The notes under the pieces are model-generated. The model saw only the letters and a list, made by a program, of their open reading frames with translations, made no database searches and was not told the origin of the DNA. From Candidatus Methanophagaceae archaeon (GTDB lineage: Archaea > Halobacteriota > Syntropharchaeia > Alkanophagales > Methanospirareceae), in assembly GCA_003194425.1 (NCBI GenBank), contig PQXB01000002.1, positions 1 to 32,000 on the forward strand: a stretch of DNA of 32,000 bases, in the 5' to 3' direction. The position numbers and the translations under genes were made by a program. Below, in pieces: positions 1,130 to 31,212 of this stretch. The number at the start of each line of letters is the position of its first letter. Position 1 is the first letter of the stretch.

Positions 1130-2353
1130 ATGAGAGAGGAGAAGTACGATGTGGTGGTGGTAGGGGCAGGACCGGCAGGCAGCGTGGCAGCGAAGACAGC
1201 TGCAGAGCGAGGTGCAGAGGTTCTTTTAATCGAGCGAAATCAGGAAATCGGCGTGCCCGTGAAGTGTGCAGAAGGAGTGAGCAAGGAGATCGAGAAGTTC
1301 GTTGAGGTTGTCCCCAGGTGCGTCTCCGCCGAGGTGAAAGGAGCGAACATTTACGGTCCCGACGGCACGAAGGTGGTCTTGTCTGCGGAGACGATGGACG
1401 AGACGGGCTACGTTTTGGAGCGGAAGATATTTGACAAGTCGCTTGCGATCGCGGCTGCGAGAGCGGGAGCGGAAGTGCGAGTGAAAACCGAAGCCTACGG
1501 CGTCGTTAAAGAAAACGGGTTTACGAAAGGCGTTCTTGCTCGCTGTGGCTGCAGCGACTACAGCGACTGCAGCGGAGGTGGCAGGGAAGGAGAGGTTCGG
1601 ATTTCCGCTGATGTTGTTGTGGCTGCAGACGGCGTGGAATCACGGGTCGGCAGGTGGGCGGGGATCAAGACACGGCTGCGACCTTCTGAAGTTTCAGTGA
1701 GCGCCGAGTTCCTGATGTGCGGTTTAGAACGGGAACTGAACAGCGACTTTTCCGAGTTCTTCGTTAGCAACGAAATTGCACCAAAGGGCTACGCTTGGGT
1801 CTTTCCGAAAGGGAGCGGTTGTGCGAATGTCGGGCTTGGAATAAGCGGCGACGTCTCGGGCGAGAAGCACCGTGCGTTTGACTACCTGCGGGCGTTTGCG
1901 CGAATGAAGTTTCCGAAAGGGGGAGTAGTGGCGGAAATTTATGGGGTCGTGCCGCTGAGTGGTTCGCTCCCCGAGACGACAGCAGACGGGCTTGTTTTGG
2001 TCGGCGACGCTGCGAGACAGGTCAACCCGCTTACAGGCGGCGGGATTTTGTACGCGATCCAGGCAGGCGAAATAGCGGGCGAGGTCGTTGCGAAGGCAGT
2101 GCAGGAAAAAGACTTCTCAAAGACGCGGTTGGCAGAGTACGAGAAGAGGTGGCGGAGCGAGTTTGGGAAGCGGTTGGAGACCGGGCTGAAAGCAAAAGAG
2201 TTCTTCTTCGGGCTCTCTGACAAAGACCTCAACAAGTTGGCTCACTCTTTGGAAGGCGTGAAAATCGAGGAACTTTCTGTCGGGGCACTGCTCTTGGAAC
2301 TCGTGAAGCGGAACCCGAAAATGCTGCTTGGACTGCGGAAAATCCTGCTCTAA
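1130..2353 (+). CDS. Geranylgeranyl reductase family FAD-dependent oxidoreductase
   Basis: N-terminal DVVVVGAGPAGS dinucleotide-binding fold, VKCAEG motif, and LVGDAARQVNPLTGGGI, all typical of archaeal GGR / digeranylgeranylglycerophospholipid reductase. Contains an insert CGCSDYSDCSGGG encoded by a 9-bp repeat. Confidence 0.8.
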   Translation: MREEKYDVVVVGAGPAGSVAAKTAAERGAEVLLIERNQEIGVPVKCAEGVSKEIEKFVEVVPRCVSAEVKGANIYGPDGTKVVLSAETMDETGYVLERKIFDKSLAIAAARAGAEVRVKTEAYGVVKENGFTKGVLARCGCSDYSDCSGGGREGEVRISADVVVAADGVESRVGRWAGIKTRLRPSEVSVSAEFLMCGLERELNSDFSEFFVSNEIAPKGYAWVFPKGSGCANVGLGISGDVSGEKHRAFDYLRAFARMKFPKGGVVAEIYGVVPLSGSLPETTADGLVLVGDAARQVNPLTGGGILYAIQAGEIAGEVVAKAVQEKDFSKTRLAEYEKRWRSEFGKRLETGLKAKEFFFGLSDKDLNKLAHSLEGVKIEELSVGALLLELVKRNPKMLLGLRKILL

Positions 2354-2381
2354 CAAAACAAAACCTCTAACAAAACAAAAC
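2348..2381 (+). repeat. 17-bp x2 perfect tandem duplication (ctctaacaaaacaaaac) that includes the GGR stop codon
   Basis: Unit 1 (2348-2364) contains the TAA stop at 2351-2353. Unit 2 (2365-2381) repeats it exactly in the spacer before the next gene. Confidence 0.95.
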
Positions 2382-2398
2382 TAAAATCAAAACTAAAA

Positions 2399-3865
2399 AT
2401 GCCAGTAATTAAGACCGCACCGTCAAGGTTTCCGAACGAAATCTCCGAGACTGAGGTGAAGAGGGAGATTTTGAGATGCATAAACTGCGGCACCTGCGCT
2501 GCGGTCTGCCCGTTCGGCGTGCACGAGCGGAGAAAGGGCTACAACAGGATTTCAAAGCCCGTGAGTTCCCGCTGTCTCGGCGCCGCGTGTGAGGAGAAGC
2601 CGTTTTACTGCGTCAGGCACTGCCCTCGAGGAGCACTCTCGCTGGGCGTAAGTTCGGAGTACCGCACAATTGGTGACTTCCGCTGGACTCGCGACCTCCT
2701 ACTCGGAACTTGGAAGCAGGCGGAGACAGGACTACCGCTTAAAGGGAAAGGACGAAAATACGAAATCGGGAACTCGAGGGGGGGGTTTGACCGAATTTTC
2801 TTCAATTTTCCGAAAGAGAGAGAGGGGGACGAAAAACTTGAAGACAAAAAAGTAAGCACCGAAATCGAGTTGAACAAGCGGTCGGAGGGGGAAAAAATCC
2901 GAATCGCAGTGCCGTTCTACGGCGGCGGAATGTCCTTCGGCTCGGTCAGTCTCTCCGTAATTCTCGCGAGGGCAAAAGCCGCGAAGGCGTGGGACACCTT
3001 CACCTGCACGGGCGAGGGCGGCTACCCAGAAGTCTTGAAAGAGTACGACGAGAATGTGATTACGCAGGTTGCGACTGGGCTCTTCGGCGTGACGGAAGAG
3101 ACAATTCAACGCGTGAGGGTCGTTGAATTCAAGTACGCGCAGGGAGCAAAACCAGGTCTCGGCGGGCATCTGCTCGGCGACAAAGTAACACCTGAGGTGG
3201 CACGAATGCGGGAAGCGGTGCTGGGCAGCAGCCTCTTCTCCCCGTTTCCGTTTCACAGCGTCTACTCGGTGGAAGACCACAAAAAGCACGTGGACTGGAT
3301 AAAGGAGCTGAACCCGAATGCTGTCGTTTCGGTAAAGGTCTCAACCCCGACGGACGTGGATATGGTCGCGGTCGGCAGCTACTACGCGGGTGCAAACATA
3401 ATTCACCTCGACGGCAGTTACGGGGGGACGGGAGCGGCGCCCGAGATTGCGAAGAAGAACATTGCGATGCCGATTGAGTACGCAATCCCGAAGGTGCACG
3501 AGTTTCTCAAAGAGGAGGGGATTCGCGAAAAAATGACGGTCATCGCGAGCGGCGGAATAAGAACCGCACACGACGCGGCGAAGGCGATTGCACTGGGTGC
3601 TGACGGCGTTGTCCTCGGGACAACCGAGCTGGTTGCTCTGGGCTGTGTGCGGTGCGGTAACTGCGAGTCCGGCAGGGGCTGCCCGCGTGGGATTGCGACG
3701 ACCGACCCTGAACTTTTCGGGGCTGTTGAGGTGGAGTGGGGCGCTCAGCGGCTGGTGAATTTGTACGCAGCGTGGCGGAGCGAGCTTGTGAGCATTTTAA
3801 GGAGGCTCGGGCTGCAGAGTGTGAAAGAGTTGGTGGGGCGGTACGACTGCTTGTCTTATTTATGA
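2399..3865 (+). CDS. Glutamate-synthase domain-2-like FMN/Fe-S oxidoreductase with N-terminal 2x[4Fe-4S] ferredoxin domain
   Basis: N-terminal CINCGTCAAVCP plus C..C..CVRHCP. GltB FMN-domain motifs are present (FYGGGMSFGS, KYAQGAKPGLGGHL, ASGGIRT, LGADGV) together with the C-terminal CVRCGNCESGRGCPRGIATTD cluster motif. No GATase or GXGXG subunit genes are adjacent. Confidence 0.75.
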   Translation: MPVIKTAPSRFPNEISETEVKREILRCINCGTCAAVCPFGVHERRKGYNRISKPVSSRCLGAACEEKPFYCVRHCPRGALSLGVSSEYRTIGDFRWTRDLLLGTWKQAETGLPLKGKGRKYEIGNSRGGFDRIFFNFPKEREGDEKLEDKKVSTEIELNKRSEGEKIRIAVPFYGGGMSFGSVSLSVILARAKAAKAWDTFTCTGEGGYPEVLKEYDENVITQVATGLFGVTEETIQRVRVVEFKYAQGAKPGLGGHLLGDKVTPEVARMREAVLGSSLFSPFPFHSVYSVEDHKKHVDWIKELNPNAVVSVKVSTPTDVDMVAVGSYYAGANIIHLDGSYGGTGAAPEIAKKNIAMPIEYAIPKVHEFLKEEGIREKMTVIASGGIRTAHDAAKAIALGADGVVLGTTELVALGCVRCGNCESGRGCPRGIATTDPELFGAVEVEWGAQRLVNLYAAWRSELVSILRRLGLQSVKELVGRYDCLSYL

Positions 3866-8050: not shown

Positions 8051-8068
8051 TTTTTTCACTCTGTCTTT

Positions 8069-8112
8069 CTCAACTTAACCACGCCCTCATCTCAACTCAA
8101 CCACGCCCTCAA
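8069..8112 (-). repeat. 22-bp x2 tandem duplication spanning the dapF stop codon
   Basis: ctcaacttaaccacgccctcat (8069-8090) and ctcaactcaaccacgccctcaa (8091-8112) match at 20/22. The copy at 8091-8112 encodes the last dapF codons (EGVVELR). The dapF stop (8087-8089) lies at the junction, and the rest of the other copy is non-coding. Confidence 0.9.
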
Positions 8113-8989: not shown

Positions 8990-9005
8990 ACTTTTAACCC
9001 CCTCA

Positions 9006-9035
9006 GCCTTTCACACGCACGCCTTTCACACGCAC
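9006..9035. repeat. 15-bp x2 perfect tandem repeat (gcctttcacacgcac) upstream of dapF
   Basis: Read directly. Lies 17-46 nt upstream of the dapF GTG on the minus strand. Confidence 0.95.
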
Positions 9036-9210: not shown

Positions 9211-9321
9211 GTGGTGCTCGTTTTGGTTGGGGCGGAAGTTTGTCTGCGGTGTGGCGAGGCTTACTACACGCCGAAGACCGTAGAGAAGTTAGTGAAGATA
9301 AGAGAAAGATTGAAAGGGTGA
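9211..9321 (+). pseudogene. Remnant of a YgiT/MqsA-type zinc-ribbon protein (C-terminal half only)
   Basis: VVLVLVGAEVCLRCGEAYYTPKTVEKLVKIRERLKG resembles the second half of YgiT-type zinc fingers (VP..VC..CGE.Y). The first CxxC pair is missing. The TATA-like GTATAATATAAC at 9178-9189 would place a leaderless GTG near 9211. Confidence 0.3.
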
Positions 9322-9350
9322 GGGATTGAAAGGGTGAGGGATTGAAAGGA
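9308..9350 (+). repeat. 16-bp x2.7 tandem repeat (gattgaaagggtgagg) including the stop codon of the zinc-ribbon remnant
   Basis: Two perfect units (9308-9323, 9324-9339) plus a partial third. The TGA at 9319-9321 lies in unit 1 and is repeated. Confidence 0.95.
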
Positions 9351-12245: not shown

Positions 12246-13766
12246 TTAAAAATCCCTGAAAAGTTTGACCACATTTTTCACTTCCCCCACCACAACCCGA
12301 ACCTGCTTCATCGTGTCCCGCTCCCGCACCGTCACTGTGTCGTCCTCCAGCGTCTCGTAGTCCACAGTTACGCAAAAAGGCGTGCCGATTTCGTCCTGCC
12401 GCCGGTACCGCCTGCCGATGCTGCCGGACTCGTCGTACTCCACGAACATTCCCGCCGCTCGCAACTCCTGAAAAACCGCCCTCGCCTTCTTCTTCAACTC
12501 CTCCCGCTTAAGCAGTGGCAAGACCGCGGCTCTCACCGGTGCGACCTCCTTCTTAAACCTCAACACCTTCCGCTTCTCTTTTCCCACCTGCTCCTCGTAG
12601 AACGAACTCTCGAGCAGGGCGTAAACAATTCGGTCAATTCCGTAAGAAGGCTCAATCACATTCGGCGTCCCCGCACCTCCACCACTCAGCGAGTGTGCCG
12701 AGAGGTCGTAGTCGCCCCGGTCCGCCACGCCAACGATTTCCATCCAGCCGTACCGCTCGCTAAAGAACTCCGCGTCCCAGCAGTCGGTCGCGTAGTGCGC
12801 CATTTCGTCCCCGCGGTGCTGTCTGAATTTCAGTCGCTCTCGCGGGATTCCAAGCCCCTCTACCAGGAACTCCTCCACCCTCGCAATGTGGTAGCCCAGG
12901 AACTCGTTTGCAACCACACCGCTCCTAACTGCTTCCTCTACGCTTACGCTCTTCTCCTCCCCTTTCTCCTCTCCTCCTCTTCCTCCTTCTCCCTCTTCCC
13001 CGCCCTTTCCCTCTCGCTTTCCCTCTCCCTTTTCCTCTCCCTTTCCTTCGCCCTCTGCACTTGGAACAAGCCTCAGCCGCTTCTCCTTCACTGCCGCAAA
13101 CCGCGGGTGCTTCTCCTTCTCCGCGGGGTCGACAAAAACCTCCGCCTCCGCCATCGTGAACTCACGCAGCCGAATAAGGCTCTTTCTCGGCGAAATCTCG
13201 TTCCTGTACGCCTTCCCAATTTGAAACGCACCGAACGGTAGCTTACCGCGGTTGAACCGCAGCAGCCGCGGGAAATTTAGAAAAATCCCCTGTGCCGTCT
13301 CGGGTCGCAGGTAACCCTCGCTCTTCCTTCTCTCTTCTTTCTCGTCTCCCCCTGCCCCTCTCCCTCCTCCCCCCCTCGGCACTCCAATCCTCGTCTGAAA
13401 CATCAAATTAAACTCGCCCGCGTCCTCAAGCTCGCCGCCGCACTCAGGACACCTCTGCCCCTCTCCCACTTCCTCTCTCTCGGCAACGCGGAAAAAATTC
13501 CTGCACTGCCTGCAGACCACCGCCTGGTCTGAAAAGCTCTCCAAATGCCCCGACGCCTCAAAGACCGCCCTCGGTGCGACGGTCGGCGTCTCCACCTCGT
13601 AAAACCCCTCACGCAAGTAGAACTCCCGCCACGCCGCTTCCACCCGCCGTTTCAGCAACGCACCCAACGGACCGTAGTCGTAAAACCCCGCTGCACCGCC
13701 GTAAACCTCAAACGCCTGCCACAAAAACCCACGCCTGCGAGCGAGTTCCGCTACTTCGTCTTGCAT
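12246..13766 (-). CDS. glyS: Glycine--tRNA ligase (archaeal/eukaryotic-type class II)
   Basis: RRGFLWQAFEVYGGAAGFYDYGPLG, LRPETAQGIF and REFTMAEAEVF are GlyRS signature motifs. Zinc-ribbon insert CRQC...CPECG. Two long G/E/K-rich inserts are encoded by CT-rich (antisense) repeats at about 12950-13070 and 13315-13380. Confidence 0.9.
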   Translation of the reverse strand: MQDEVAELARRRGFLWQAFEVYGGAAGFYDYGPLGALLKRRVEAAWREFYLREGFYEVETPTVAPRAVFEASGHLESFSDQAVVCRQCRNFFRVAEREEVGEGQRCPECGGELEDAGEFNLMFQTRIGVPRGGGGRGAGGDEKEERRKSEGYLRPETAQGIFLNFPRLLRFNRGKLPFGAFQIGKAYRNEISPRKSLIRLREFTMAEAEVFVDPAEKEKHPRFAAVKEKRLRLVPSAEGEGKGEEKGEGKREGKGGEEGEGGRGGEEKGEEKSVSVEEAVRSGVVANEFLGYHIARVEEFLVEGLGIPRERLKFRQHRGDEMAHYATDCWDAEFFSERYGWMEIVGVADRGDYDLSAHSLSGGGAGTPNVIEPSYGIDRIVYALLESSFYEEQVGKEKRKVLRFKKEVAPVRAAVLPLLKREELKKKARAVFQELRAAGMFVEYDESGSIGRRYRRQDEIGTPFCVTVDYETLEDDTVTVRERDTMKQVRVVVGEVKNVVKLFRDF

Positions 13767-13822
13767 CTTACATCCCGCATCTTACATCCCGCATCTTACA
13801 TCCCGCATCTTGCATTCCACAT
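13763..13822 (-). repeat. Array of nine ATG-initiated heptads (14-bp x4 repeat) filling the spacer and ending in the glyS start codon
   Basis: The minus strand reads ATGTGGA ATGCAAG ATGCGGG ATGTAAG ATGCGGG ATGTAAG ATGCGGG ATGTAAG ATGCAAG(ACG..). ATGs fall every 7 nt from 13822 to 13766. Confidence 0.95.
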
Positions 13823-15286: not shown

Positions 15287-15700
15287 TTAGACAATCTTGT
15301 ACTGCCCCTCATAGTGCAAAAACGAGATCTCCTTGCCCGGATCAACTTTTCCCCTCTCCTTCTCCCGCAACTCCCCTGGTATTTTTATCTCCACCGTAGA
15401 GTAGTCCTCCAAGTCCATAATTTGTGCTGTGTCGCCCTCGCCCTCGCCCTCGCCCTCGCCCGAGACCGAGAGCACCTGACCGCTCTTCCGCTCAATCACA
15501 GGCACATAAATCTTCGCGGTAACAGGATGAATTGCCGTCCTCTTCTGCCCGTCAAAGACGCCAATGCCCTCGATCCGAGCCTTTGCAGCCCCGTGCTTCC
15601 CCGGTTTTGAAGTTGTCATACTCGTTATCGTGCACGGCTCCTCGTCTAAAACCACGTACCGCCCTTCTTTCAGCGTCCTCACCTCTGCCAGCTCTTTCAT
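15287..15700 (-). CDS. eif5a: Translation initiation factor 5A (aIF5A)
   Basis: LKEGRYVVLDEEPCTITSMTTSKPGKHGAAKARIEGIGVFDG carries the hypusine loop KPGKHG. C-terminal OB domain with a GEGEGEGEG insert. Confidence 0.92.
   Translation of the reverse strand: MKELAEVRTLKEGRYVVLDEEPCTITSMTTSKPGKHGAAKARIEGIGVFDGQKRTAIHPVTAKIYVPVIERKSGQVLSVSGEGEGEGEGDTAQIMDLEDYSTVEIKIPGELREKERGKVDPGKEISFLHYEGQYKIV
15434..15457 (-). repeat. (GCCCTC)x4 hexanucleotide repeat encoding GEGEGEGEG inside aIF5A
   Basis: Read directly. In frame, within the C-terminal domain. Confidence 0.95.
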
Positions 15701-15804
15701 ATTTTATCCGCTCCCTCCTCCTTCGCCTTTGACTTCTCCTTTGGCTTCTCTTCTCGCTTCTCCGCTCTTCCCCTCTCTTCTCCTCTCTTCTCCTTTCCTT
15801 TCAC

Positions 15805-16355: not shown

Positions 16356-17540
16356 ATGCGGGTCTTGGTGGCGGAGTACGCGGTCGGGGTCGGCGTTGGC
16401 GAGGGTTCGTTGTTGCGGGAAGGAAAAGCGATGCTCACGACTTTGAAGCGGAGTTTTGAGCGGCTCGGGGCTGAAGTTCTCTCACCGGTGGCTGAAGAGG
16501 TGGGTGCGGGGGCAGGAGGTACAGGGAGAGGAGCAGGGAGAGGAGCAGGGAGAGGAGCAGGGAGAGGAGCAGGAAGAGGAGGAGCAGGAGGAGGAGCAAG
16601 GGGAGGAGCAAGGGGAGGAGGTAGAGCAGAGGAAGATTTTGAGGCTGCGGTGGAAAGGCTCGCAAAGAGGAGCGACGCGGGAATTGTGATTGCTCCTGAC
16701 GAGACGCTCTGCGAACTTACAAAGGTCGTAGAAGAGAACACTGTTAATTTGGGCTGTCCCTCGGAGTGCGTGAAAATCTGCGCCGATAAAATGCAGACGA
16801 CAAAAATCTTGGAGCGCGAAGGAATTCCTGTGCCGAGACTTGTGTCAGAGTCAAGGGAAGAAGAGGAGAGAGTGAGAGAGGGAGAGAGGGAGAGAGGAAG
16901 AGAGGGAGAGAGGGAGAGAGGAAGAGAGGGAGAGGGAGTGCAAAGTTATGTAAAGAAGCCGAGGTACGGGTGTGCTTCTGAGAATGTTTTCGTGCTGAAC
17001 TGGGAGGAGAGGGGCGAGGAGGGAGGAGAAGCGTCGTTGGGGGCGGGAACGGAAGATTTTATCGTAACAGAATTTGTAAAGGGTGAGGCGGTGAGCAGCA
17101 GCGTAATTGCTGGCGCTGTTGGCGGCGGGAGTTCGGTGCTGCCGCTCACGGTAAACAAGCAATTCGTGAGGCAGGAGCGAGGAAGAGAGGGAGAGGTAAA
17201 GAGGCTGCGGTACGAGGGCGGCGTGGTTCCGTATTTTGTAGGACGCAGTGCTGAGAAGCAGATAAAAAGCACGAGTGAAAAGGTCGCAACCACGCTGAAC
17301 TGCAGAGGTTACGTGGGCATCGATTTCGTGTTAGGCGAGGAGGACGGGACGGCGTACGTCGTGGATGTGAACCCAAGACCAACGACTTCGGTGGTGGGCG
17401 TGGCGGAGGTGCTGCTGAATTACGAGTTTGCGGACTTGCTGTGGCGTGCGAGGTTTGGAACTCTACCCGCGGAGGAGGTGAAGACAGGGGGGGAATTTAT
17501 TTTAGACTTTTCAAAAGAAAGTTTTGTCAAGGGGGAATAA
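16356..17540 (+). CDS. ATP-grasp ligase, MfnD-like (tyramine--L-glutamate ligase candidate)
   Basis: MRVLVAEYA start, IAPDETL, ADKMQTTKIL, KKPRYGCASENV and GYVGIDFVL....YVVDVNPRPTTS fit the ATP-grasp fold and the pattern I recall for MfnD (COG2232-type). The specific function is not verified. Two long repeat-encoded inserts. Confidence 0.6.
   Translation: MRVLVAEYAVGVGVGEGSLLREGKAMLTTLKRSFERLGAEVLSPVAEEVGAGAGGTGRGAGRGAGRGAGRGAGRGGAGGGARGGARGGGRAEEDFEAAVERLAKRSDAGIVIAPDETLCELTKVVEENTVNLGCPSECVKICADKMQTTKILEREGIPVPRLVSESREEEERVREGERERGREGERERGREGEGVQSYVKKPRYGCASENVFVLNWEERGEEGGEASLGAGTEDFIVTEFVKGEAVSSSVIAGAVGGGSSVLPLTVNKQFVRQERGREGEVKRLRYEGGVVPYFVGRSAEKQIKSTSEKVATTLNCRGYVGIDFVLGEEDGTAYVVDVNPRPTTSVVGVAEVLLNYEFADLLWRARFGTLPAEEVKTGGEFILDFSKESFVKGE
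16523..16570 (+). repeat. 12-bp x4 perfect in-frame repeat (agggagaggagc) encoding GRGA x4, degenerating to about 16620
   Basis: Read directly. Inside the ATP-grasp gene. Confidence 0.95.
16878..16937 (+). repeat. 24-bp x2.5 in-frame repeat encoding EGERERGR EGERERGR EGEG
   Basis: GAGGGAGAGAGGGAGAGAGGAAGA occurs at 16878-16901 and 16902-16925, followed by a partial copy. Confidence 0.95.
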
Positions 17541-19553: not shown

Positions 19554-19590
19554 AACATTTCTTTAAAAAACCAAAGAAACTTTTTAAAAA

Positions 19591-19628
19591 ATGCTAAACC
19601 TTTTTGGCAATGCTAAAACTTTTCGGCA
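19591..19628 (+). repeat. 19-bp x2 tandem duplication of the isf start codon region
   Basis: atgctaaacctttttggca (19591-19609) and atgctaaaacttttcggca (19610-19628) match at 16/19. Both begin with ATG and encode ML(N/K)LFG. The upstream copy is out of frame and opens a 26-codon overlapping uORF. Confidence 0.9.
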
Positions 19629-20829: not shown

Positions 20830-21282
20830 ATGAAAAAGAGAAAGGGAAAGGGAATAAGAAAGAGGGGGGAGATTGTGGGAATAGAAAAAGAGACGTTGGA
20901 TTTTATTCTTGAAGTGAGCAAATCAAACCACCCGCGGGAGTTCATCGGAATGCTGCGTGCCGACGGGGACGCAGGGCTTGTAACCGATGTTCTTTTCCTT
21001 CCCGGCACGCTCTCGTCAGACGAGAGTGCGATTATTCGGCTGGATATGATGCCGACTGGACTTGACTACGTGGGGTCGGTGCACAGCCACCCAAGCCAGC
21101 ACTCGCACCTGCACCCCGTCGACCCCGCCGCGATGCGACCGTCGGAGCAGGACTTGATTATGTTCTCCAAGACAGGAAATTGCCACATCATAACTTTTTA
21201 CCCTTACGCAGCGGAGAGCTGGAAATGCTACAATTCACGAGGCGAGGAGAGGGCGTTGGAGGTGGTGGAAGAAAAATGGTGA
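20830..21282 (+). CDS. JAB1/MPN/JAMM-domain metalloprotease
   Basis: Conserved Glu (HPREFIG) and HSHPS....PSEQD (JAMM H-x-H...S-x-x-D). The spacer between HxH and S is 17 residues rather than the canonical 7 and is His-rich (HSHPSQHSHLHP). Confidence 0.7.
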   Translation: MKKRKGKGIRKRGEIVGIEKETLDFILEVSKSNHPREFIGMLRADGDAGLVTDVLFLPGTLSSDESAIIRLDMMPTGLDYVGSVHSHPSQHSHLHPVDPAAMRPSEQDLIMFSKTGNCHIITFYPYAAESWKCYNSRGEERALEVVEEKW

Positions 21283-21301
21283 AGGTAAAATGGTAAGGGT
21301 C
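21274..21301 (+). repeat. Imperfect 14-bp x2 duplication across the JAMM stop and ribL start
   Basis: aaatggtgaaggta (21274-21287, contains the TGA stop) and aaatggtaagggtc (21288-21301, contains the ribL ATG) match at 11/14. Confidence 0.6.
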
Positions 21302-21715
21302 TTGGCGACAGGGACATTTGAGATTCTTCACCCGGGGCATCTGCTTTATTTAGAGGAGGCGAAGCGGCTGGGGGACGAGCTTTTCGTCGTCGTTGCGAGG
21401 GACACGACGGTGAAGAAGCGGAAGAGAACGCCAGTTATTCCGGAGGAGCAGCGGTTGAAAATGGTCGCGGCGTTGCGGGTCGTGGACGACGCGAGGTTGG
21501 GCAGCGAGCGAGATATGTTTGAACCTTTATATAAGATAAAACCGAATGTAATTGCACTGGGTTACGACCAAAAATTCGACGAGGCTGCGTTGGCGGAGGA
21601 AGTCAGGAGGCGGGGCTTTAACTCGGAGGTCGTTCGCGTAAAAAAGCACAACACAAATGCTTTTTGCAAGGCAGAAGAGATAATAAAACACATATTTAAG
21701 TTAAGGGGGAAATAA
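21290..21715 (+). CDS. ribL: Archaeal FAD synthase (FMN adenylyltransferase) RibL
   Basis: VLATGTFEILHPGHLLYLEEAKRLGDELFVVVARD is the cytidylyltransferase-fold H-x-G-H motif. Size and pattern match RibL. Confidence 0.85.
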   Translation: MVRVLATGTFEILHPGHLLYLEEAKRLGDELFVVVARDTTVKKRKRTPVIPEEQRLKMVAALRVVDDARLGSERDMFEPLYKIKPNVIALGYDQKFDEAALAEEVRRRGFNSEVVRVKKHNTNAFCKAEEIIKHIFKLRGK

Positions 21716-21721
21716 GAAAAA

Positions 21722-22153: not shown

Positions 22154-22245
22154 ATGAAAATGAAAGGGGTACAAGAATGAAAGTGGTAGAGAGATGAAAG
22201 AGGTAGAGAGATGAAAATGGAAGAATGAAGGATGAGAAAGGGTAG
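22154..22245 (+). promoter_or_regulatory. Chain of five ATGA-linked mini-ORFs (5-8 codons) bridging nikR and the next gene, built on a 17-bp repeat
   Basis: 22154-22180 MKMKGVQE*, 22177-22197 MKVVER*, 22194-22214 MKEVER*, 22211-22228 MKMEE*, 22225-22245 MKDEKG*. Each ATG overlaps the preceding TGA. The first ATG abuts the nikR TGA, and the last mini-ORF overlaps the ATG at 22232. Confidence 0.6.
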
Positions 22246-23260
22246 TAAAAAGGGTAGTAGAATAAATATTATGGCACTGCTCGCGGGGGTCGTGGCGGTC
22301 TTGATCGCGGGAAGCGGGGTTGTGGGGGTAGCTTCTGCCCACTTCACGATGCTCATTCCAGGCGGTAGCACAGATGTCAGTCCCAAGGACTACTTTGCAA
22401 ATTTAGGCGAGGAGAAGACCGTGCTGATCACTTGGGGCTGCCCGTTCAAGGAACTTTTTGACTGCATAGATATTCCCGCGGTCGCCGTGAGGGATCCTGG
22501 AGGGAACATTACGCAATTAACCCCTGTTGAGACTTCTGTTGAGGGAGTGAAGGCGTACAAGGTCTCTTTCACGGTTGAGAAGCGGGGTGATTACATCGTT
22601 TATTCAACAATGAATGTGTCTGGGATTAAGGGCGATTTTGTGGATCACGCAAAGGCGGTAATTCACTGCGGTCAGGCAGCGTGGACGGGGTGGGAAGCGG
22701 AACTTGGCGAGAGCGTCGAAATAGTCCCTTACATCCGCCCCTACGGGTTAGAAGAGGGGGCGGTGTTCAAAGCGAGGGCGATTCAGGACGGCGAGCCGCT
22801 CACAGGTGCGACGGTTTATGTCGTGAAGTATCGTCTGAGCGACGACCCGCCTGCGAAGGTGCTTGAGAGAGCAGGAGAGGTCTTCCCCCAGGACTCGTGG
22901 ATGATGGTAAAAGGGTTCACGAAGACCGATTCGGACGGCGATTTTGTTTACACGCTCGATGAGCCTGGGATTTGGACAATGGTCGTCTTTGGTAAGGGCG
23001 TGATGGAGCGTGGTGCCTTTATCCTACCTGTCTTCGAATCTTTTCCGCCATCGTCAACCGAGGAGTTTGAGGTTTTTTCTGCCAGACCCGAAACAGAAAC
23101 GAGACCTGTCCCTAAATCCCCAGCAGTCGGTTTATTCGCAACAGTAGGGCTAATTGGGTTTATTGCGGTTCTTTTGAGCCAGAAGGGGTGGAAAGGGAAG
23201 GGACGGAAAGGAGTAGGAGGGAAGAAAAAGGGACGGAAAGAAGTAGGAGGGAAGAAATGA
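22232..23260 (+). CDS. DUF4198-like secreted metal (nickel/cobalt)-binding protein with C-terminal membrane anchor
   Basis: The signal peptide ends ...GVASA|HFTMLIPGG, and an N-terminal His after cleavage is typical of DUF4198-type proteins. C-terminal TM segment (VGLFATVGLIGFIAVLL) plus a Lys/Gly tail. Sits immediately downstream of nikR. Confidence 0.6.
   Translation: MRKGSKKGSRINIMALLAGVVAVLIAGSGVVGVASAHFTMLIPGGSTDVSPKDYFANLGEEKTVLITWGCPFKELFDCIDIPAVAVRDPGGNITQLTPVETSVEGVKAYKVSFTVEKRGDYIVYSTMNVSGIKGDFVDHAKAVIHCGQAAWTGWEAELGESVEIVPYIRPYGLEEGAVFKARAIQDGEPLTGATVYVVKYRLSDDPPAKVLERAGEVFPQDSWMMVKGFTKTDSDGDFVYTLDEPGIWTMVVFGKGVMERGAFILPVFESFPPSSTEEFEVFSARPETETRPVPKSPAVGLFATVGLIGFIAVLLSQKGWKGKGRKGVGGKKKGRKEVGGKK
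23200..23259 (+). repeat. 30-bp x2 tandem duplication covering a stop/start ATGA junction
   Basis: Units at 23200-23229 and 23230-23259 match at 27/30. The second copy carries the ATGA (23257-23260) that ends the DUF4198-like gene and starts the next. The repeat encodes GRKGVGGKKK / GRKEVGGKK*. Confidence 0.9.
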
Positions 23261-24526: not shown

Positions 24527-26455
24527 ATGTCAGCAGAACAGAGGCTTTTAGAGTTAAAGCGGCGAATAGAGGAGTTGTTACCAGCAGGGGTGGGCTTTAG
24601 CGAGGTGGAGTTTGAGGGTCCTGAACTCGTTATTTACAGCGAGGACGCGCAGAAATTCGCGGACGACGGTGCGATTGTCAGGACACTGGCGAAGGAGTTG
24701 AAGAAGCGGATTTCGGTCAGACCGAGTGCAGAGATGCTGATGAAGCCGGAGAATGCGTCAAAGGCGATTTACGAAATCGTGCCCGAGGACGGAGGGATAA
24801 AAGACATTTATTTCGACCTCGACAAGGCGGAGGTAATAATTGAGGCGGAGCGGCCGGGGCTGGTAATCGGGACGCACGGAGCGACGCTAAAAGAAGTAGC
24901 GAAAGTGATTGGCTGGCGACCCAGCGTCATCCGAGCACCGCCAATTCAGTCCGCGATAATAAAAAGCATTCGGCGGTATTTACGCGAGGAGAGCGAGTTC
25001 AGAAAGGGTTTCTTGAAGCGGACAGGTCGGCGAATTTACAGGGACAGCGACAGAACCAGCGACAGAACCAGCGAGAAGACGAGAAGGGACGACTGGGTGC
25101 GTGTAACAATGCTGGGGGGGTGCAAGGAAGTGGGTAGGAACGCGTTCCAACTTTCTACGCCCGAGACGCGGGTTTTAATAGACTGCGGCGTGAGTGTTGG
25201 GTCAGAGGGGACGCCTTACTTGTACGTTCCCGAGGTGACGCCGATTCGAGACATCGACGCGGTCGTGATCACGCACGCACACTTAGACCACACAGGTTTA
25301 ATACCGCTCTTGTTTCAGTACGAGTACGACGGTCCGATTTACACAACGCCGCCGACGAGGGATTTAATGACGCTTCTGCTGCTCGACTACCTTGAGGTCT
25401 CGGTGCGGGAGGGGAAGCGGATTCCTTACAAGTCCGCCCGAATAAGAGACGCGGTGAGGCACACGATTCTGCTGAACTACGGCGAGGTGACGGACATTTC
25501 GCCGGACTTGAAACTCACTTTTTACAACGCAGGGCACATTCTCGGCTCTGCGATCGCGTACTTCAACATCGGGAACGGGCGTTACAACCTCGCGTTCAGC
25601 GGAGACATAAAATATGAACGCACACTTCTCTTCGACCCCGCGTTCAACGGCTTCCCAAAACTCGACGGGCTGGTGCTGGAATCGACCTACGGCGGTGCGA
25701 ACGACTTTCAGCCGTCGCGGCGCGAGGCGGAGAAGAACTTGAAGGACGACATTGAGCGGACGATAAAAAGGGGTGGTAAAGTTGTAATTCCTGCTTTCGC
25801 GGTCGGCAGGTCGCAGGAGGTGATGTTGGCGTTGGAGCGGCTGCGGTTGGAGGTGCCAGTTTATTTGGACGGGATGATTTGGGAGGCGACTGCTGTCCAC
25901 ACCGCGCACCCTGAGTACCTCAACAAAAAACTGAAGACTTCAATATTCAAGGGCGAGAACCCGTTCTTGTCCGATGTTTTTGTGCAGGTGGACGACGCAG
26001 AGAAGCGGAGGGCGATAATCGAGGGGCGAGAGGAGGGGAAAGAGCCGTGCGTCATTCTCGCCACCTCAGGAATGTTGAACGGCGGTCCGGTCTTGGAATA
26101 CCTGAAAGGGCTGGCAAGCGACGAGAAGAACATGCTCATTTTCGTGGGCTACCAGGCGGAAGGCACACTCGGACGGCGGATTCAGAAGGGCTGGAAGGAG
26201 GTGCCGCTTTCAGATGCGGGCAAAATAAGGAATATTAAAATGAAAATGGAGACGAAGACGATCGACGGCTTCTCGGGACATTCGGACCGCAACCAACTGC
26301 TCGAATTCGTGAAGGGCATTCGACCGCTGCCGTCGAAGGTGATTTGCGTTCACGGCGAGAGTAGCAAATGCGTGGCGTTGGCGAGCGGAATTCACAGGAA
26401 GTTCAGCATCGAGACGGCGGCGCCGATGAATTTGGAGACCTTGAGGCTGGTCTGA
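24527..26455 (+). CDS. fttA: aCPSF1 / FttA beta-CASP ribonuclease (KH + metallo-beta-lactamase + beta-CASP)
   Basis: N-terminal KH-type region (GLVIGTHGATLKEV), MBL motif VITHAHLDHTG, beta-CASP and C-terminal GFSGHSD, HGE. Adjacency to psmB is the arrangement commonly seen in archaea. Linker repeat DRTSDRTSE. Confidence 0.92.
   Translation: MSAEQRLLELKRRIEELLPAGVGFSEVEFEGPELVIYSEDAQKFADDGAIVRTLAKELKKRISVRPSAEMLMKPENASKAIYEIVPEDGGIKDIYFDLDKAEVIIEAERPGLVIGTHGATLKEVAKVIGWRPSVIRAPPIQSAIIKSIRRYLREESEFRKGFLKRTGRRIYRDSDRTSDRTSEKTRRDDWVRVTMLGGCKEVGRNAFQLSTPETRVLIDCGVSVGSEGTPYLYVPEVTPIRDIDAVVITHAHLDHTGLIPLLFQYEYDGPIYTTPPTRDLMTLLLLDYLEVSVREGKRIPYKSARIRDAVRHTILLNYGEVTDISPDLKLTFYNAGHILGSAIAYFNIGNGRYNLAFSGDIKYERTLLFDPAFNGFPKLDGLVLESTYGGANDFQPSRREAEKNLKDDIERTIKRGGKVVIPAFAVGRSQEVMLALERLRLEVPVYLDGMIWEATAVHTAHPEYLNKKLKTSIFKGENPFLSDVFVQVDDAEKRRAIIEGREEGKEPCVILATSGMLNGGPVLEYLKGLASDEKNMLIFVGYQAEGTLGRRIQKGWKEVPLSDAGKIRNIKMKMETKTIDGFSGHSDRNQLLEFVKGIRPLPSKVICVHGESSKCVALASGIHRKFSIETAAPMNLETLRLV
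25046..25080 (+). repeat. 12-bp x2.9 in-frame repeat (agcgacagaacc) encoding SDRTSDRTSEKT
   Basis: Read directly. Lies in the KH-MBL linker of aCPSF1. Confidence 0.9.
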
Positions 26456-26512
26456 AGAGGCTGGTCTGAAGAGGCTGGTCTGAAGAGGCTGGTCTGAAGA
26501 GGCTGGTCTGAA
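26443..26512 (+). repeat. 14-bp x5 perfect tandem repeat (gaggctggtctgaa) starting in the last codons of aCPSF1
   Basis: Five identical units. Unit 1 contains codons RLV and the TGA stop (26453-26455). TGA recurs every 14 nt, so it appears in all three frames. Confidence 0.97.
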
Positions 26513-26560: not shown

Positions 26561-27397
26561 ATGACGAGCATAAGAGAGAGAATGGAAAGTATGGGAATCG
26601 GCAAGCGGATAAGAATGGAGCGGATTGTGGAGCGGAAGAGCGGGAGGAGTGTGATTGTTCCGATGGATCACGGCGTGACTTTGGGACCGATTGAGGGGCT
26701 GACCGATATGAAGCGGGCGGTGAACGCAGTGGCAGAAGGAGGAGCAAACGCGGTCCTCGTGCACAAAGGCATCGTAATCGCGGGGCATCGCGGCTACGGC
26801 AAGGACATCGGACTCATAATTCACCTCTCCGCCAGCACTTCGCTTGGTCCCGACCCGCTGAACAAGGTTATGGTCGCGACGGTGGAGGAGGCAGTGAGGT
26901 TAGGAGCAGACGCGGTCTCAATGCATTTGAACGTGGGTGCCGAGAGCGAGGCGGAGATGCTCGAGGAGCTGGGCGAGACCACAATGGTCTGCGAGGAGTG
27001 GGGAATGCCGCTCTTGGCGATGATGTACCCGCGGGGGAAGAAGGTGAATGAGACGGCGAAAGGCGAGCACGGGGTGGAAATGGTAAAGCACGTGGCTCGT
27101 GTGGGCGCGGAACTTGGGGCAGATGTTATAAAAACGAACTACACCGGCGACCCCGATTCGTTCAAGGAGGTCGTAGAGAGTTGTCCGGTGCCGGTAATAA
27201 TTGCGGGCGGTCCGAAGGCGAGCACTGACGCGGAAGTGCTGGAAATGGTGGAGGACGCGGTCTCAGTCGGCGCCGCGGGTGTCTCAATCGGCAGGAATGT
27301 CTTTCAGCACTCAAGCCCGACGAAGATGACAATTGCGATAAGCAAAGTAGTGCACGAGGGCGTTTCCGCGGAAGAGGCGTTGGAGACGCTGAAGTGA
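26561..27397 (+). CDS. aroA': 2-amino-3,7-dideoxy-D-threo-hept-6-ulosonate synthase (AroA', class I aldolase family)
   Basis: [25 protein letters not shown], the Schiff-base region DVIKTNYTG, and IAGGPK. Immediately followed by the AroB' gene. Confidence 0.8.
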
Positions 27398-27453
27398 GTA
27401 AAAGTGAGTAGAAGTGAGTAAAGGCGAGTAGAAGTGAGTAAAGGCGAGTAGAA
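27394..27453 (+). repeat. 10-bp x6 tandem repeat (GTGAGTARAR / GCGAGTAGAA) filling the whole aroA'-aroB' spacer
   Basis: Starts at the G before the TGA stop (27395-27397) and ends 2 nt before ATG 27456. Every unit carries TAA or TAG, and four of the six also carry TGA. Confidence 0.95.
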
Positions 27454-28721: not shown

Positions 28722-29405
28722 ATGATTCCAATCGCGAAACCGGTATTTGGCGAGGAAGAGTTAAACGCAGTAAAAGAGGTTTTAGCCTCGGGATTTGTCG
28801 TGCAAGGCAGGAGAGTAGAGGAATTTGAGACAGCGTTCTCAGACTACCTCAATCTCGGTCACGCAGTCGCGGTCGCCAACGGGACAGTCGCCCTTGACCT
28901 CGCACTCAAGGCTGCGGGAATTAAACGCGGAGACGAGGTCGTCGTCCCTTCGTTCAGCTTCGTCTCCACCGCGAACGCGGTCCTGTTTCAAGGAGCAAAG
29001 CCGGTCTTCGCGGATTTGGAGGAGGAGAAGAGCGAGAGCGAGAGAACCTTTAACCTTTCTCCAAACGATGTTTTAGAGAAACTGACCGAGCGGACAAAAG
29101 CGGTCGTCGGCGTGCACCTCTTCGGGCATCCGTTTGATGTGCGGGCGATTCAGGAAATCTGCGAGGACCACGACCTAATTTTAATTGAGGACTGCGCGCA
29201 GGCTCACGGTGCAGAGTACGAGGGCAAGAGAGTGGGCGGGTTCGGGACCGCGGGTTGCTTCTCCTTCTACGCCACAAAAAATATGACCACTGGGGAAGGA
29301 GGAATGGTAACAACCGAGAGCGACGAAGTAGCGAGGCTCTGCAAGCTGCTCAGAAATCACGGCGAAGGCGGCGGCGTTTCTTTGCTCGTTTCTTTGCTTG
29401 TTTGA
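28722..29405 (+). pseudogene. DegT/DnrJ/EryC1/StrS-family aminotransferase, 3'-truncated
   Basis: MIPIAKPVFGEEEL..., GTVALDLALKA, FYATKNMTTGEGGM (PLP lysine region) and LRNHGE are normal. The sequence then runs into GGGVSLLVSLLV* at about 228 aa, where family members are usually about 360-390 aa. Confidence 0.7.
29375..29398. repeat. 12-bp x2 perfect tandem repeat (cgtttctttgct) at the DegT truncation point
   Basis: Read directly. Preceded by GGCGGCGGC and followed by the premature TGA (29403-29405) and a 120-bp AT-rich patch. Confidence 0.95.
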
Positions 29406-29528: not shown

Positions 29529-29959
29529 TCTGTAACCTCAAAAACAGGGCACGAGTGAGCCCCGCCCGAGAATTTGTCGCCTTTGTAGGTGTACGCTCCA
29601 CTCATCCGCACTCGCTTGCCCAGCAGTTCCTGCGCCGCTTGCGTAGCACGCTCGGCGTCGTAGTCAAGCCGTCCTACAACGCAAGGCCCCTCCTCAGTCT
29701 TCACCAGGCAAGGAATGTAGGGGACCTCCCCCTCAAAACCCTCGGACGGCACGCGAATTACCGTAAAAGTCGTCAACTCCCCAGCACCGCTCAACTTCGT
29801 CCTCTCAAGGCTCCGCCCCCCGCACCACTGACAAACAGGCATTGGGTGGCAGGTTACTCCGCCGCAGGACGCACACCGCAGCCCCAACAACTTCCCGCTC
29901 CTCAATCCTTCTTCGTACTCGGAAAGAGTTAGCATTTTCTCTTGCTCTTTTTCTACCAT
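29525..29959 (-). CDS. DUF35 zinc-ribbon/OB-fold protein (thiolase-associated)
   Basis: CASCGG....CQWCGG rubredoxin-like ribbon followed by an OB-fold region. Starts 3 nt after the thiolase stop. Confidence 0.8.
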   Translation of the reverse strand: MVEKEQEKMLTLSEYEEGLRSGKLLGLRCASCGGVTCHPMPVCQWCGGRSLERTKLSGAGELTTFTVIRVPSEGFEGEVPYIPCLVKTEEGPCVVGRLDYDAERATQAAQELLGKRVRMSGAYTYKGDKFSGGAHSCPVFEVTE

Positions 29960-29962
29960 TTT

Positions 29963-31165
29963 TTATTTCCTCCTTTTCGACCGCCCAAGAATAAGGTGGC
30001 AGAGCGTCCCGAAGTCGCCCCCAAGGGTGTCGGTCATTCCGTACTCAGGAACAGGGTCGATTTGAATTCCTTTCGGTGCTTCGCCACGCATCTGCTTAAC
30101 GACCCAGTAGACCTGCGACGCCCCTGTCGCTCCGATTGGGTGTCCTCTGCCGAGCAGCCCGCCAGACGCGTTTACAGGTATTTTCCCGTCCCTCTCGGTC
30201 TGCCCGTCTGCGGTCGCGTCTGCCGCCTCACCCCACCCGAAGAAGCCCATTCCTTCAAGCGCGATTAATTCCGCAATCGTAAAACAGTCGTGAAGTTCGA
30301 GCACGTCAATCTCCGAAGGCTCGAGCCCCGCACGCTTAAACGCCATTCTCGCAGAACTCACCCTCGAAGCAGGCTTTGTCAAGTCCCCGCCAGCCATTTT
30401 TGAGAGCGCACCGCCCGACCCCTGCCCCGTGCCAAGCACAAAAACAGGCTCGTCCGTGTACTTCCGCGCCTCCTCCGCGGAGCAGAGCACGAGAGCAGCA
30501 GCACCGTCTGAGAAAGGGCAGCAGTCCAACAGCGTCAGCGGGTCCGCCACAAACCTCGAATTTACCACTTCCTCCACCTTCAGGTCCCCCATTTTCCCGT
30601 AGAACTGCGCCAGCGGGTTTAACGCCCCTTGCCTGTGGTTCTTAACCGAGACGAGTGCCATTTTCTCACGCAGCTCTTCCAGCGGCACGCCGTAATTCTT
30701 AGAGTACTGCAACGCCGCCATTCCGAAGACTCCTGGGAAAGTGAGCCCCGCTGGTCCCTCGGTCGGTGCGTGGCACGCCATCGAGAAAGTCCGCGTCGCA
30801 AAGAGCGTCCCCATCGTCAACGCCCTCTCTACGCCCCCCGCCAGCACAACATCAAACTCCCCAGCAGCGACCCACATCGCCGCCTCGCGCACTGCAATCG
30901 ACGCCGACGCGCACGCTCCCTCGTACCTCGTCGCAGGCACAGGACTCAGCCCGAGCTCGCCAGCAGAGAAGGCTGCGGGCATTACCTGCCCCTCCTCGAA
31001 ACCAGGCAGCGCCGAACCCTGAAACAACGCCTCCACATCCTTCAATTCCACGCCCGCGTCGTCTACCGCCTGCAACGCCGCCTCTGAGAAGAGCTCAAGC
31101 CCCTTCTTCGTCTTCGCTCGCCCGAACTTCGTGTGCCCAACTCCAATTATCGCTACATCCCTCAT
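29963..31165 (-). CDS. Acetyl-CoA acetyltransferase (archaeal SCP-x-type thiolase)
   Basis: True start is MRDVAIIGVGHTKFG at 31165, preceded by GAAGGAGGAG. The active-site region GACASASIAV is present, along with CFTIAE and NASGGLLGRGHPIGATG. The 54-codon N-terminal extension in the track ORF is spurious. Confidence 0.88.
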   Translation of the reverse strand: MRDVAIIGVGHTKFGRAKTKKGLELFSEAALQAVDDAGVELKDVEALFQGSALPGFEEGQVMPAAFSAGELGLSPVPATRYEGACASASIAVREAAMWVAAGEFDVVLAGGVERALTMGTLFATRTFSMACHAPTEGPAGLTFPGVFGMAALQYSKNYGVPLEELREKMALVSVKNHRQGALNPLAQFYGKMGDLKVEEVVNSRFVADPLTLLDCCPFSDGAAALVLCSAEEARKYTDEPVFVLGTGQGSGGALSKMAGGDLTKPASRVSSARMAFKRAGLEPSEIDVLELHDCFTIAELIALEGMGFFGWGEAADATADGQTERDGKIPVNASGGLLGRGHPIGATGASQVYWVVKQMRGEAPKGIQIDPVPEYGMTDTLGGDFGTLCHLILGRSKRRK

Positions 31166-31212
31166 TTGCTCCTCCTTCTCTTTGCTCCTCCTTCTCTTTG
31201 CTTCTCCTTCTC
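31165..31212 (-). repeat. 16-bp x3 tandem repeat duplicating the thiolase Shine-Dalgarno and start context
   Basis: The minus strand reads GAGAAGGAGAAGCAAA GAGAAGGAGGAGCAAA GAGAAGGAGGAGCAAA-TG. The last A of the proximal unit is the A of the ATG (31165). Confidence 0.95.

Follow-up and report, generated by a model that had tools for sequence, protein, structure and literature searches.

Fast tandem duplication filtered by selection on reading frame probably explains repeat arrays at gene junctions of an ANME-1 chromosome

Introduction

Short tandem repeats that carry the start or stop codon of a gene raise the question of whether duplication is aimed at the boundaries of genes or whether selection spares it there. 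We wondered which of the two applies to a 32,000-nucleotide stretch of DNA from a Candidatus Methanophagaceae archaeon (assembly GCA_003194425.1, contig PQXB01000002.1, positions 1 to 32,000; the whole stretch is called the window from here on). An earlier note, made from the sequence alone, had listed twelve tandem arrays at gene junctions of the window and held that the duplications were seeded on start and stop codons. We found arrays in large excess over chance that are restricted to one lineage and polymorphic in copy number, with units in multiples of three nucleotides (3n) inside genes and units of other lengths at gene ends. We consider it probable that this pattern reflects fast tandem duplication throughout the lineage combined with purifying selection on reading frame, the junction-centred look arising from the compactness of the genome.

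Results

Arrays were called with Tandem Repeats Finder (TRF), and non-redundant calls with a score of at least 50 entered the census. The 32 kb hold 28 such arrays, 13 of them outside coding sequences (CDS), compared to 1.7 ± 1.0 arrays in total and 0.23 outside CDS in shuffled windows in which each 150-nt block kept its codon content and each spacer its base content. Of the window as a whole 4.9% is repeat sequence, and the figure is 3.5% for CDS and 28% for non-coding DNA. The arrays are 80-100% matched, with perfect examples of 12 x 4.3, 14 x 5, 17 x 2 and 16 x 2.6 (unit length in bp x copies), and several consist of exact integer copies without flanking microhomology (17 x 2.0, 14 x 5.0, 15 x 2.0). 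No unit was found again elsewhere in the window when up to two mismatches were allowed; the units are unique to their loci. Among arrays in spacers or at boundaries 11 of 17 have units that are not 3n (the 3n share is ~35-40%), and the same is true of all eight boundary arrays, that is, those whose unit contains a start or stop codon. On the coding strand the repeats are 81% purine versus 58% elsewhere, with A at 35% compared to 24.5% outside and G at 45% compared to 33.5%, a general purine bias in which G rises more.

The window was aligned with twelve contigs that match parts of it at 96-100% identity and stem from other samples and assemblers (contigs are designated by L numbers). They were reached via aCPSF1, thiolase and homologues of GltB and a topoisomerase; exact-protein look-ups with glyS, GGR, the OB-fold protein and hyp154 gave no matches. 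Practically all indels of at least 2 nt relative to these contigs are gains or losses of repeat units, often with several alleles. About 19 polymorphic indel loci lie in CDS and all are 3n (3 to 72 bp), among them multi-allelic loci at 491-509 in the PAC2 gene and at 8347 in dapF, where a 15-bp unit is gained once, twice or four times (+1, +2 or +4). Non-3n indels are confined to gene ends (dapF 22 bp, JAB/ribL 14 bp, ribL 23 bp, aCPSF1 multiples of 14 bp, DeoC 20 bp) and to the zinc-ribbon remnant open reading frame (ORF) of one strain. These polymorphisms lend good support to the proposal of the earlier note that duplication is filtered by selection against frameshifts. Outside CDS, five of ten polymorphic loci are at gene ends and five are purely intergenic. 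Copy numbers vary freely among near-identical strains, with no sign of a preferred state.

The process also reaches into conserved proteins, in line with the earlier suggestion that it acts genome-wide. In the ATP-grasp gene, arrays add GRGAGRGA... and RE/GE-rich stretches that are not found in orthologues, and units amounting to 51 bp are deleted in L001. The PAC2 arrays are multi-allelic across strains (+12, +30, +39, +42, +72 and -12 bp). Further insertions relative to ANME-1 orthologues comprise SDRTSDRTSE in aCPSF1 and EGK-rich stretches in GlyRS, and the topoisomerase of the repeat-rich lineage has 727 residues versus ~680 in relatives. The claim that units inside CDS are always 3n holds for nearly all arrays; the exceptions are two weak arrays, with 11- and 17-bp units, and an 8-bp array (GGAGAGAG) of the ATP-grasp gene that repeats perfectly as a super-unit of 24 bp.

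We analyzed the junction arrays using TRF calls together with direct inspection of the sequences (Table 1). All twelve listed arrays were recovered, within 1-3 nt of the positions given before. The unit truly contains a start or stop codon in eight of them (GGR, dapF, zinc-ribbon ORF, glyS, isf, JAB/ribL, aCPSF1, DeoC), as claimed for the whole set. The other four lack a boundary codon: the nikR, DUF4198 and thiolase arrays merely abut one, and the DegT array sits at a breakpoint.

Comparison of orthologous junctions, as proposed in the earlier note, traced several units to conserved gene ends. Relative to other ANME-1, the aCPSF1, DeoC and JAB units represent conserved C-terminal codons plus the stop. 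For aCPSF1 the unit comprises the last three codons, TGA and one further nucleotide, and the C-terminus LETLRLV* is kept across ANME-1; the array has five copies in the window, three in L002, L003 and L087 and two in L001. The DeoC unit begins at a ...LK* stop conserved in other ANME-1, and its 20-bp version is present in three copies in the window, four in L001 and L087 and two in L002. At JAB/ribL, other ANME-1 have an overlapping ATGGTAA stop/start, and the 14-bp duplication (two copies in the window, three in L001) separates both genes. L001 also shows a fresh 23-bp tandem duplication at the ribL stop, consisting of the last five codons, the stop and 3 nt.

Only the dapF stop was newly made. 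The 22-bp duplication shifts the frame such that an out-of-frame TGA enters it and the protein ends ...ELR*; with one copy, as in L095, it ends ...ELRKTE*, and the stop of the window is not ancestral. One copy is found in L095, L099, L100 and L102 and two in L101 and the window. dapF is thus a direct case of a frameshifting duplication tolerated when just three C-terminal residues change. That boundary arrays in general are stops created by frameshift was rejected; this is true of dapF alone, the aCPSF1, DeoC and JAB stops being ancestral.

At the remaining junctions, repeats frequently make up much of the spacer. The GGR 17-bp array is followed by a 12-bp x 2.3 array that reaches the GltB ATG at 2399, and together they form most of the 45-nt spacer; the 17-bp array is common to the strains and the neighbouring 12-bp unit is lacking in L099. 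Every unit of the glyS array contains ATG and TAA, and the array occupies most of the hyp160-glyS spacer. At isf, where the array is also present in L001, the second ATG (19610) is the true start and the first is out of frame. The nikR array starts directly past the TGA, which it excludes, and fills the spacer to the DUF4198 start, and the in-frame 30-bp duplication in DUF4198 stops at an ATGA stop/start overlap. The thiolase array accounts for 63 of the 99 nt of the divergent spacer between thiolase and Iso_dh; its four units end one base into the ATG, leaving the start codon unduplicated. In the divergent spacer between aIF5A and hyp123, L001 carries one extra 12-bp unit.

The DegT repeat is of a different kind. 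It begins at 29376, where homology to the intact DegT of L001 and L087 stops, and the 3' half of DegT is not in the window. L001 and L087 encode the full 407-residue protein, and their own 12-bp repeat (AGAGCGGGAGCA) starts exactly at the same breakpoint. The join from DegT to the OB gene (29376-29531) is AT-rich, measures 156 bp and is reproduced in no other assembly; on the other side of this join, the L096, L097 and L098 assemblies break off at the OB gene (29525-29532). Taken together, the site represents either a repeat-associated rearrangement or a misjoin and not a duplication of a stop codon.

We then asked how many boundary arrays are expected by geometry. The null comprised all positions at which duplication of the observed unit length leaves every ORF intact, i.e. 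positions where the unit is wholly intergenic or spans a gene end. In the window, 8 of the 11 tolerated non-3n arrays are boundary arrays. The expectation is 3.2 of 11 with present-day spacers (P = 0.004) and 3.9 when repeat-made spacer DNA is collapsed to one unit (P = 0.012). It rises to 5.6 when, after collapse, three promoter-bearing spacers >200 nt are excluded as well (P = 0.12), and to 7.3 when solely collapsed spacers of ≤80 nt are considered (P = 0.46). The expected boundary share therefore varies between 0.30 and 0.66 with the treatment of spacers. With the 31 genes of the window giving a coding density of 93.8% and spacers that measure ~10-50 nt once repeat-made DNA is removed, a surviving duplication of 10-22 bp often spans a gene end. 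L098 adds 12 kb of new DNA from the same lineage; its spacers measure 81-368 nt, and its four new non-3n arrays all lie wholly between genes. Pooled with L098, 8 of 15 arrays are boundary arrays compared to 3.8-4.6 expected (P = 0.02-0.05). The boundary excess is at most ~2-fold and not robust, as it vanishes under reasonable changes of the null; the claim that duplications are seeded or concentrated at start and stop codons was not sustained. The junction-centred pattern is mostly survivorship in a compact genome and does not in itself call for a new mechanism.

The order glyS-hyp160-CBS-aIF5A // hyp123-ATPgrasp-JAB-ribL-nikR-psmB-aCPSF1-DeoC-DHQS is kept in ~30 metagenome-assembled genome (MAG) contigs of the anaerobic methanotrophic archaea ANME-1 (Methanophagales), and this shared order marks the window as chromosomal DNA of ANME-1. 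Among GTDB species representatives the closest aCPSF1 matches are ANME-1 / Methanophagales, at ≤80% amino-acid identity, and public names on proteins of the same lineage are 'ANME-1 cluster archaeon ex4572_4' and 'Methanophagales archaeon' (GCA_026133975.1); in the latter assembly, the 363-kb contig JAOQIL010000001.1 shows 96-97% identity to the window. Array density at the census threshold is 0.88 per kb in the window, 1.21 per kb in L001 and 0.4-1.4 per kb in L098-L104, which belong to the same lineage, compared to mostly 0-0.3 per kb both in ~30 other ANME-1 contigs and in ~50 contigs of other Halobacteriota. Tandem repeats are ~5-10x more frequent in the lineage of the window than in other ANME-1, and same-lineage DNA beyond the window still has ~1 array per kb. 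Coding-strand purine loading is 0.62, the same value as in the nearest relatives, which are poor in repeats, and there are also GC-rich relatives with few repeats. Composition was therefore ruled out as the sole cause of the excess.

RNA folding of 12 arrays gave no better result than shuffles for 11 of them, most with a minimum free energy of 0; the aCPSF1 array was the sole one with predicted RNA structure (z = -4.9). We accordingly rejected a role of the arrays as structured RNA or terminators. Scans of the window with Rfam (gathering thresholds) and ARAGORN gave no matches, so no known RNA accounts for any array.

Table 1. Repeat arrays and related features of the window and of other ANME-1 contigs. 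Unit lengths in bp, followed by copy number.
Feature	Sequence	Coordinates	Strand	Description
PAC2 gene arrays	window	488..1056	-	6/12/18-bp units at 488-526; 12 bp x 4.3, perfect, at 1005-1056
GGR stop array	window	2348..2399	+	17 bp x 2, perfect; TAA at 2351-2353, repeated in copy 2
dapF 3' end duplication	window	8068..8111	-	22 bp x 2 inside CDS
Zinc-ribbon ORF stop array	window	9308..9349	+	16 bp x 2.6, perfect, includes TGA
glyS start array	window	13763..13822	-	14 bp (2 x 7) x 3.8, upstream of and including ATG 13766-13764
aIF5A array	window	15432..15461	-	6 bp x 5, perfect; GEGEGEGE insertion, not in other ANME-1
aIF5A-hyp123 divergent spacer (282 nt)	window	15721..15794	.	Two purely intergenic arrays, 12 bp x 2.5 and 10 bp x 4.6
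ATP-grasp gene arrays	window	16522..16934	+	12 bp x 8 and 8/24 bp x 8.8, in-frame
isf start array	window	19590..19628	+	19 bp x 2: start codon and first 5 codons
JAB stop / ribL start array	window	21273..21300	+	14 bp x 2
ribL stop region	window	21690..21721	+	Single copy in the window
nikR-DUF4198 spacer array	window	22154..22231	+	17-bp ATG-containing units (ATGAAAGNGGTAGAGAG)
DUF4198 C-terminus	window	23198..23257	+	30 bp x 2, in-frame (KGRKGVGGKK / KGRKEVGGKK)
aCPSF1 stop array	window	26443..26512	+	14 bp x 5, perfect
DeoC (aroA') stop array	window	27391..27453	+	10/20 bp, from TGA to 2 nt before DHQS (aroB') ATG
DegT repeat	window	29375..29403	+	12 bp x 2.4
Thiolase 5' leader array	window	31165..31227	-	16 bp x 3.9, Shine-Dalgarno-like units (GAGAAGGAGGAGCAAA)
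Iso_dh gene	window	start near 31265		Continues past window end
Junction repeat, other ANME-1	L007	7824-7901		
Junction repeat, other ANME-1	L009	7717-7749		
Junction repeat, other ANME-1	L015	13008-13037		
Junction repeat, other ANME-1	L020	7843-7883		
Junction repeat, other ANME-1	L076	4622-4652		
Junction repeat, other ANME-1	L010	10732-10770		
Junction repeat, other ANME-1	L011	5243-5282		
Junction repeat, other ANME-1	L015	3886-3935		
10-bp motif site	L007	11669-11697		
10-bp motif site	L015	11933-11960		
10-bp motif site	L017	5015-5051		
10-bp motif site	L020	6768-6795		
10-bp motif site	L020	9490-9517		

Discussion

We propose that tandem duplications of ~6-50 bp arise and change copy number unusually fast across the whole genome of this lineage, each unit probably being copied from adjoining local sequence, and that purifying selection would eliminate all events that disrupt a reading frame. 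Two classes would survive. In-frame arrays in genes would add low-complexity stretches rich in Glu, Gly, Arg and Lys, even in aIF5A, GlyRS, aCPSF1 and topoisomerase. Between genes or across a gene end, arrays of any length would persist, and one copy may there retain an intact stop or the last copy an intact start. With 94% of the DNA coding and original operon spacers of ~0-50 nt, many surviving non-3n duplications would include a stop or start codon, giving rise to the junction-centred look. Repeated stops and ATGs, mini-ORFs and duplicated Shine-Dalgarno-like motifs would be by-products, which the scarcity of RNA structure, the locus-unique units and the freely varying copy numbers suggest; the separation of the overlapping JAB/ribL stop/start and the trimming of the dapF C-terminus may be seen in the same light. 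We infer that most arrays are neutral by-products and not regulators, with effects of junction arrays on translational coupling possible. Slipped-strand or template-switch duplication in the course of replication or repair might be the generating process, with purine-rich tracts favouring it, and a lineage-specific change of the replisome or of flap processing may have raised its rate.

Several known systems offer themselves for comparison. Mycobacterial interspersed repetitive units (MIRUs) are located between operon genes, with small ORFs whose stops and starts overlap those of the flanking genes, and form a dispersed family with a consensus unit of ~40-100 bp. The arrays of the window resemble them as variable-number tandem repeats between operon genes that contain overlapping stops and starts. 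In contrast to MIRUs, however, the window units measure 10-30 bp, are locus-unique, derive from the adjacent gene end and share no consensus. Contingency loci of host-adapted bacteria switch genes on and off by frameshifts in the 5' part of a CDS or by altered promoter spacing, and they too are hypermutable tracts with copy numbers differing between close strains. Here, by contrast, all CDS indels are 3n and the dapF frameshift alters just the last three residues. Yeast rad27/FEN1 mutants accumulate short tandem duplications with flanking direct repeats. The likeness lies in tandem duplications of ~5-100 bp from lagging-strand processing or polymerase slippage, and the difference in the exact integer arrays of the window that lack flanking microhomology. 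Archaeal PolB and PolD slip on repeat templates in vitro (cited in PMC9879509). By analogy, a duplication-mutator process is a candidate source of the raised rate.

The closest described system is the tandem repeats of Borgs, giant linear extrachromosomal elements of Methanoperedens. Units of Borg repeats are 3n in ORFs, and 14-38% of intergenic ones are 3n (Schoelmerich et al., 2023, PLoS Biol; PMC9879509). The earlier statement that no mechanism had been described for such duplications was thus too strong, since Borg repeats follow the same 3n-in-ORF and non-3n-between pattern. As in Borgs, the repeats of the window are head-to-tail, perfect or near-perfect and locus-unique; those in ORFs are 3n and encode low-complexity amino-acid repeats not found in homologues; intergenic units are 3n in a minority of cases (~35-40% in the window); unit numbers vary within and between close populations; arrays frequently have partial repeats at their flanks; and the coding strand is biased in base composition. 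Unlike Borg repeats, they reside on a cellular chromosome, are biased towards both G and A (Borg repeats towards A alone) and mostly have 2-8 copies, many being short or imperfect. Ten Borg genomes contain 460 repeat regions, corresponding to 0.62% of sequence, and such repeats are virtually absent from Methanoperedens hosts (≤0.01%; PMC9879509). Applying the Borg criteria (≥50 nt, ≥3 units) to the window yielded 10 arrays, or 2.1% of its length, versus the 0.62% of an average Borg. A Borg-like extrachromosomal origin of the window was rejected on the basis of its ANME-1 gene order; among its genes are housekeeping ones such as glyS, aIF5A, aCPSF1 and that of the proteasome beta subunit. In the literature on tandem repeats in ANME-1 / Methanophagales chromosomes we found no description of such repeats; one ANME-1 paper names tandem repeats, in its methods only, for structural variants >50 bp. 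The sample accessions led to no publication.

Could duplication truly target translational boundaries, with purine-rich Shine-Dalgarno or stop contexts as seeds? Or could junction arrays be retained as useful, by uncoupling overlaps, placing stops in three frames, creating chains of upstream ORFs and re-initiation or tuning downstream translation? Such readings could draw on the pooled boundary excess and on the naive P value for the window, on GAGG/GGAGG motifs and ATG or ATGA in several units, on the different repeats at the same three junctions of other ANME-1, and on the non-3n length of all boundary arrays, by which successive stop copies fall in different frames. However, the excess is gone once spacers are collapsed and long promoter spacers excluded, long spacers (L098) go with purely intergenic arrays, and the same process inserts repeats mid-gene. 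Near-identical strains carry 2, 3 or 5 copies at one locus and 2, 3 or 4 at another, predicted RNA structure is missing from 11 of 12 arrays, and a coding strand with 62% purine would be expected to contain GAGG-type motifs in any case. We therefore regard targeting or usefulness as unlikely. Equally doubtful to us is a dedicated, active repeat-forming mechanism, such as has been hypothesised for Borgs, that acts on the ANME-1 chromosome with an at least 2-fold preference for purine-rich stop or Shine-Dalgarno sites and remodels junctions. If true, it would separate overlapping stop/start pairs, trim C-termini and give rise to chains of upstream ORFs and multi-frame stops, and a conserved function of junction arrays would lie behind the same-junction repeats of other ANME-1.

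Three further explanations fare far worse. The extreme purine loading of the coding strand could generate low-complexity repeats by chance, and the repeats are indeed more purine-rich than their surroundings. Yet composition-keeping shuffles gave 1.7 arrays compared to 28 observed, array density is 0-0.3 per kb in relatives of equal purine loading and strains differ by whole units, rendering this very improbable. We attach just as little credence to the idea that errors of assembly or sequencing produced the arrays or their copy numbers, a possibility the earlier note had named. It gains some ground from Logan unitigs (L004-L006) that terminate within the aCPSF1 14-bp array, from the three assemblies that stop at the OB gene and from the DegT-to-OB join unique to the assembly of the window. 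The arrays, however, measure 28-99 bp, which is below read length and below k = 141; they recur in megahit k141 (ENA), SPAdes, JGI, NCBI MAG and Logan contigs from different samples; and copy-number differences go along with ~1-3% single-nucleotide divergence. They are therefore not artefacts. Still less plausible is the insertion of a dispersed intergenic family at junctions, like MIRUs, repetitive extragenic palindromes or miniature inverted-repeat transposable elements. Dispersed 7- and 10-mer intergenic repeats do exist in other ANME-1, but they were not found in 64 kb of the lineage of the window, and the units of the window are local gene-end sequence conserved in relatives. As each unit is unique to its locus within the window, a family of this type is excluded.

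Some observations weigh against lineage-wide duplication with selection on frame. The lineage sample amounts to only ~60 kb. Purine and GC composition alone do not explain the raised duplication rate. The pooled ~2-fold boundary excess may reflect some real gene-end preference. All eight boundary arrays are non-3n, against an expected 3n share of about one third, and all five purely intergenic polymorphic indels are 3n (2372, 9006, 9075, 9485 and 15733, with 12, 15, 3, 9 and 12 bp); the uniform model predicts neither, and the numbers are small in both cases. The 3n-only intergenic indels could be due in part to unannotated small ORFs in 8990-9566. Moreover, other ANME-1 carry unrelated short repeats at the DeoC-DHQS, aCPSF1-DeoC and hyp160-glyS junctions, namely (GGGAATAG/GCCAATAG)n directly after the DeoC stop and a 7-mer, (AAARTGY)n, after the aCPSF1 stop and upstream of glyS. 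These junction motifs were found neither in 790 kb of other Halobacteriota loci nor in 64 kb of the lineage of the window. Unrelated repeats at shared junctions could point to junction-specific hotspots or to a function.

Here a repeat syndrome that has been described as a hallmark of Borgs is seen in another methane-oxidising archaeon, on its chromosome, in denser form and within essential genes such as those of aIF5A, GlyRS, aCPSF1 and topoisomerase. Its presence on an ANME-1 chromosome suggests that the repeat-forming process need not be Borg-encoded. The phenomenon adds a chromosomal case to a known kind of repeat proliferation and provides a handle on Borg-type repeat formation. The repeat-rich lineage and its repeat-poor ANME-1 sisters (the genomes of L007-L011), which share gene order, offer a natural comparison for changes in replication or repair. 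On the practical side, repeats break assemblies, with contigs ending inside them, and alter predicted start sites and C-termini; with a share of ~28% in the non-coding DNA, they also bear on how ANME-1 MAGs are annotated and their strains typed.

Gene content and strain variation

Pfam searches with the proteins of the window agree with the gene names given by the earlier reader. They identified GGR, a GltB-like protein, two HdrA-like proteins, dapF, GlyRS, a CBS protein, aIF5A, an ATP-grasp protein, SufC/SufBD, isf, a flavoprotein, a JAB protein, a RibL-like protein, NikR, DUF4198, a proteasome beta subunit, aCPSF1/FttA, DeoC-type AroA', DHQS-II (AroB'), a truncated DegT and an OB-fold protein with thiolase. 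Relative to the conserved ANME-1 order ATPgrasp-JAB-ribL-nikR-psmB, 17542-20805 (SufC-SufBD-isf-flavoprotein) and 22232-23721 (DUF4198-hyp154) are insertions.

The zinc-ribbon region (9088-9900) varies by strain. L100 and L102 carry genes for 63 and 93 amino acids, possibly a toxin-antitoxin pair, the former corresponding to the small zinc-ribbon ORF of the window. L099 differs from the window in this region by indels of 8, 14 and 4 bp. In the window a different segment (9390-9895), which holds the 5' part of hyp154, lies here.

A gene for a 253-residue S-adenosylmethionine-dependent methyltransferase lies between GltB and an HdrA-like gene in at least five strain contigs (L095 4876-5637, also L099-L102 and L104) and is absent from the window, which retains only its last ~25 nt (3866-3893). 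The gene is higher in AT and has no repeats. In L098, ~1.5 kb with two genes (303 and 162 amino acids) are inserted after the first ~140 nt of thiolase (12473-14087), with the thiolase 5' end duplicated on either side; the 16-bp leader array consequently lies 1.6 kb from the intact thiolase. L101 has a perfect 47-bp x 2 repeat (6177-6270), non-3n and outside the window, that spans the stop end of a gene for 150 amino acids.

Many contigs of cold-seep ANME-1 MAGs contain a dispersed 10-bp tandem motif (ACACAGATTA / TTAACGCAGA, 2-4 copies) at several intergenic sites (Table 1), and TTAACGCAGA is also found in 2-3 copies in L023, L050, L067 and L070. The motif looks like a small interspersed intergenic repeat family.

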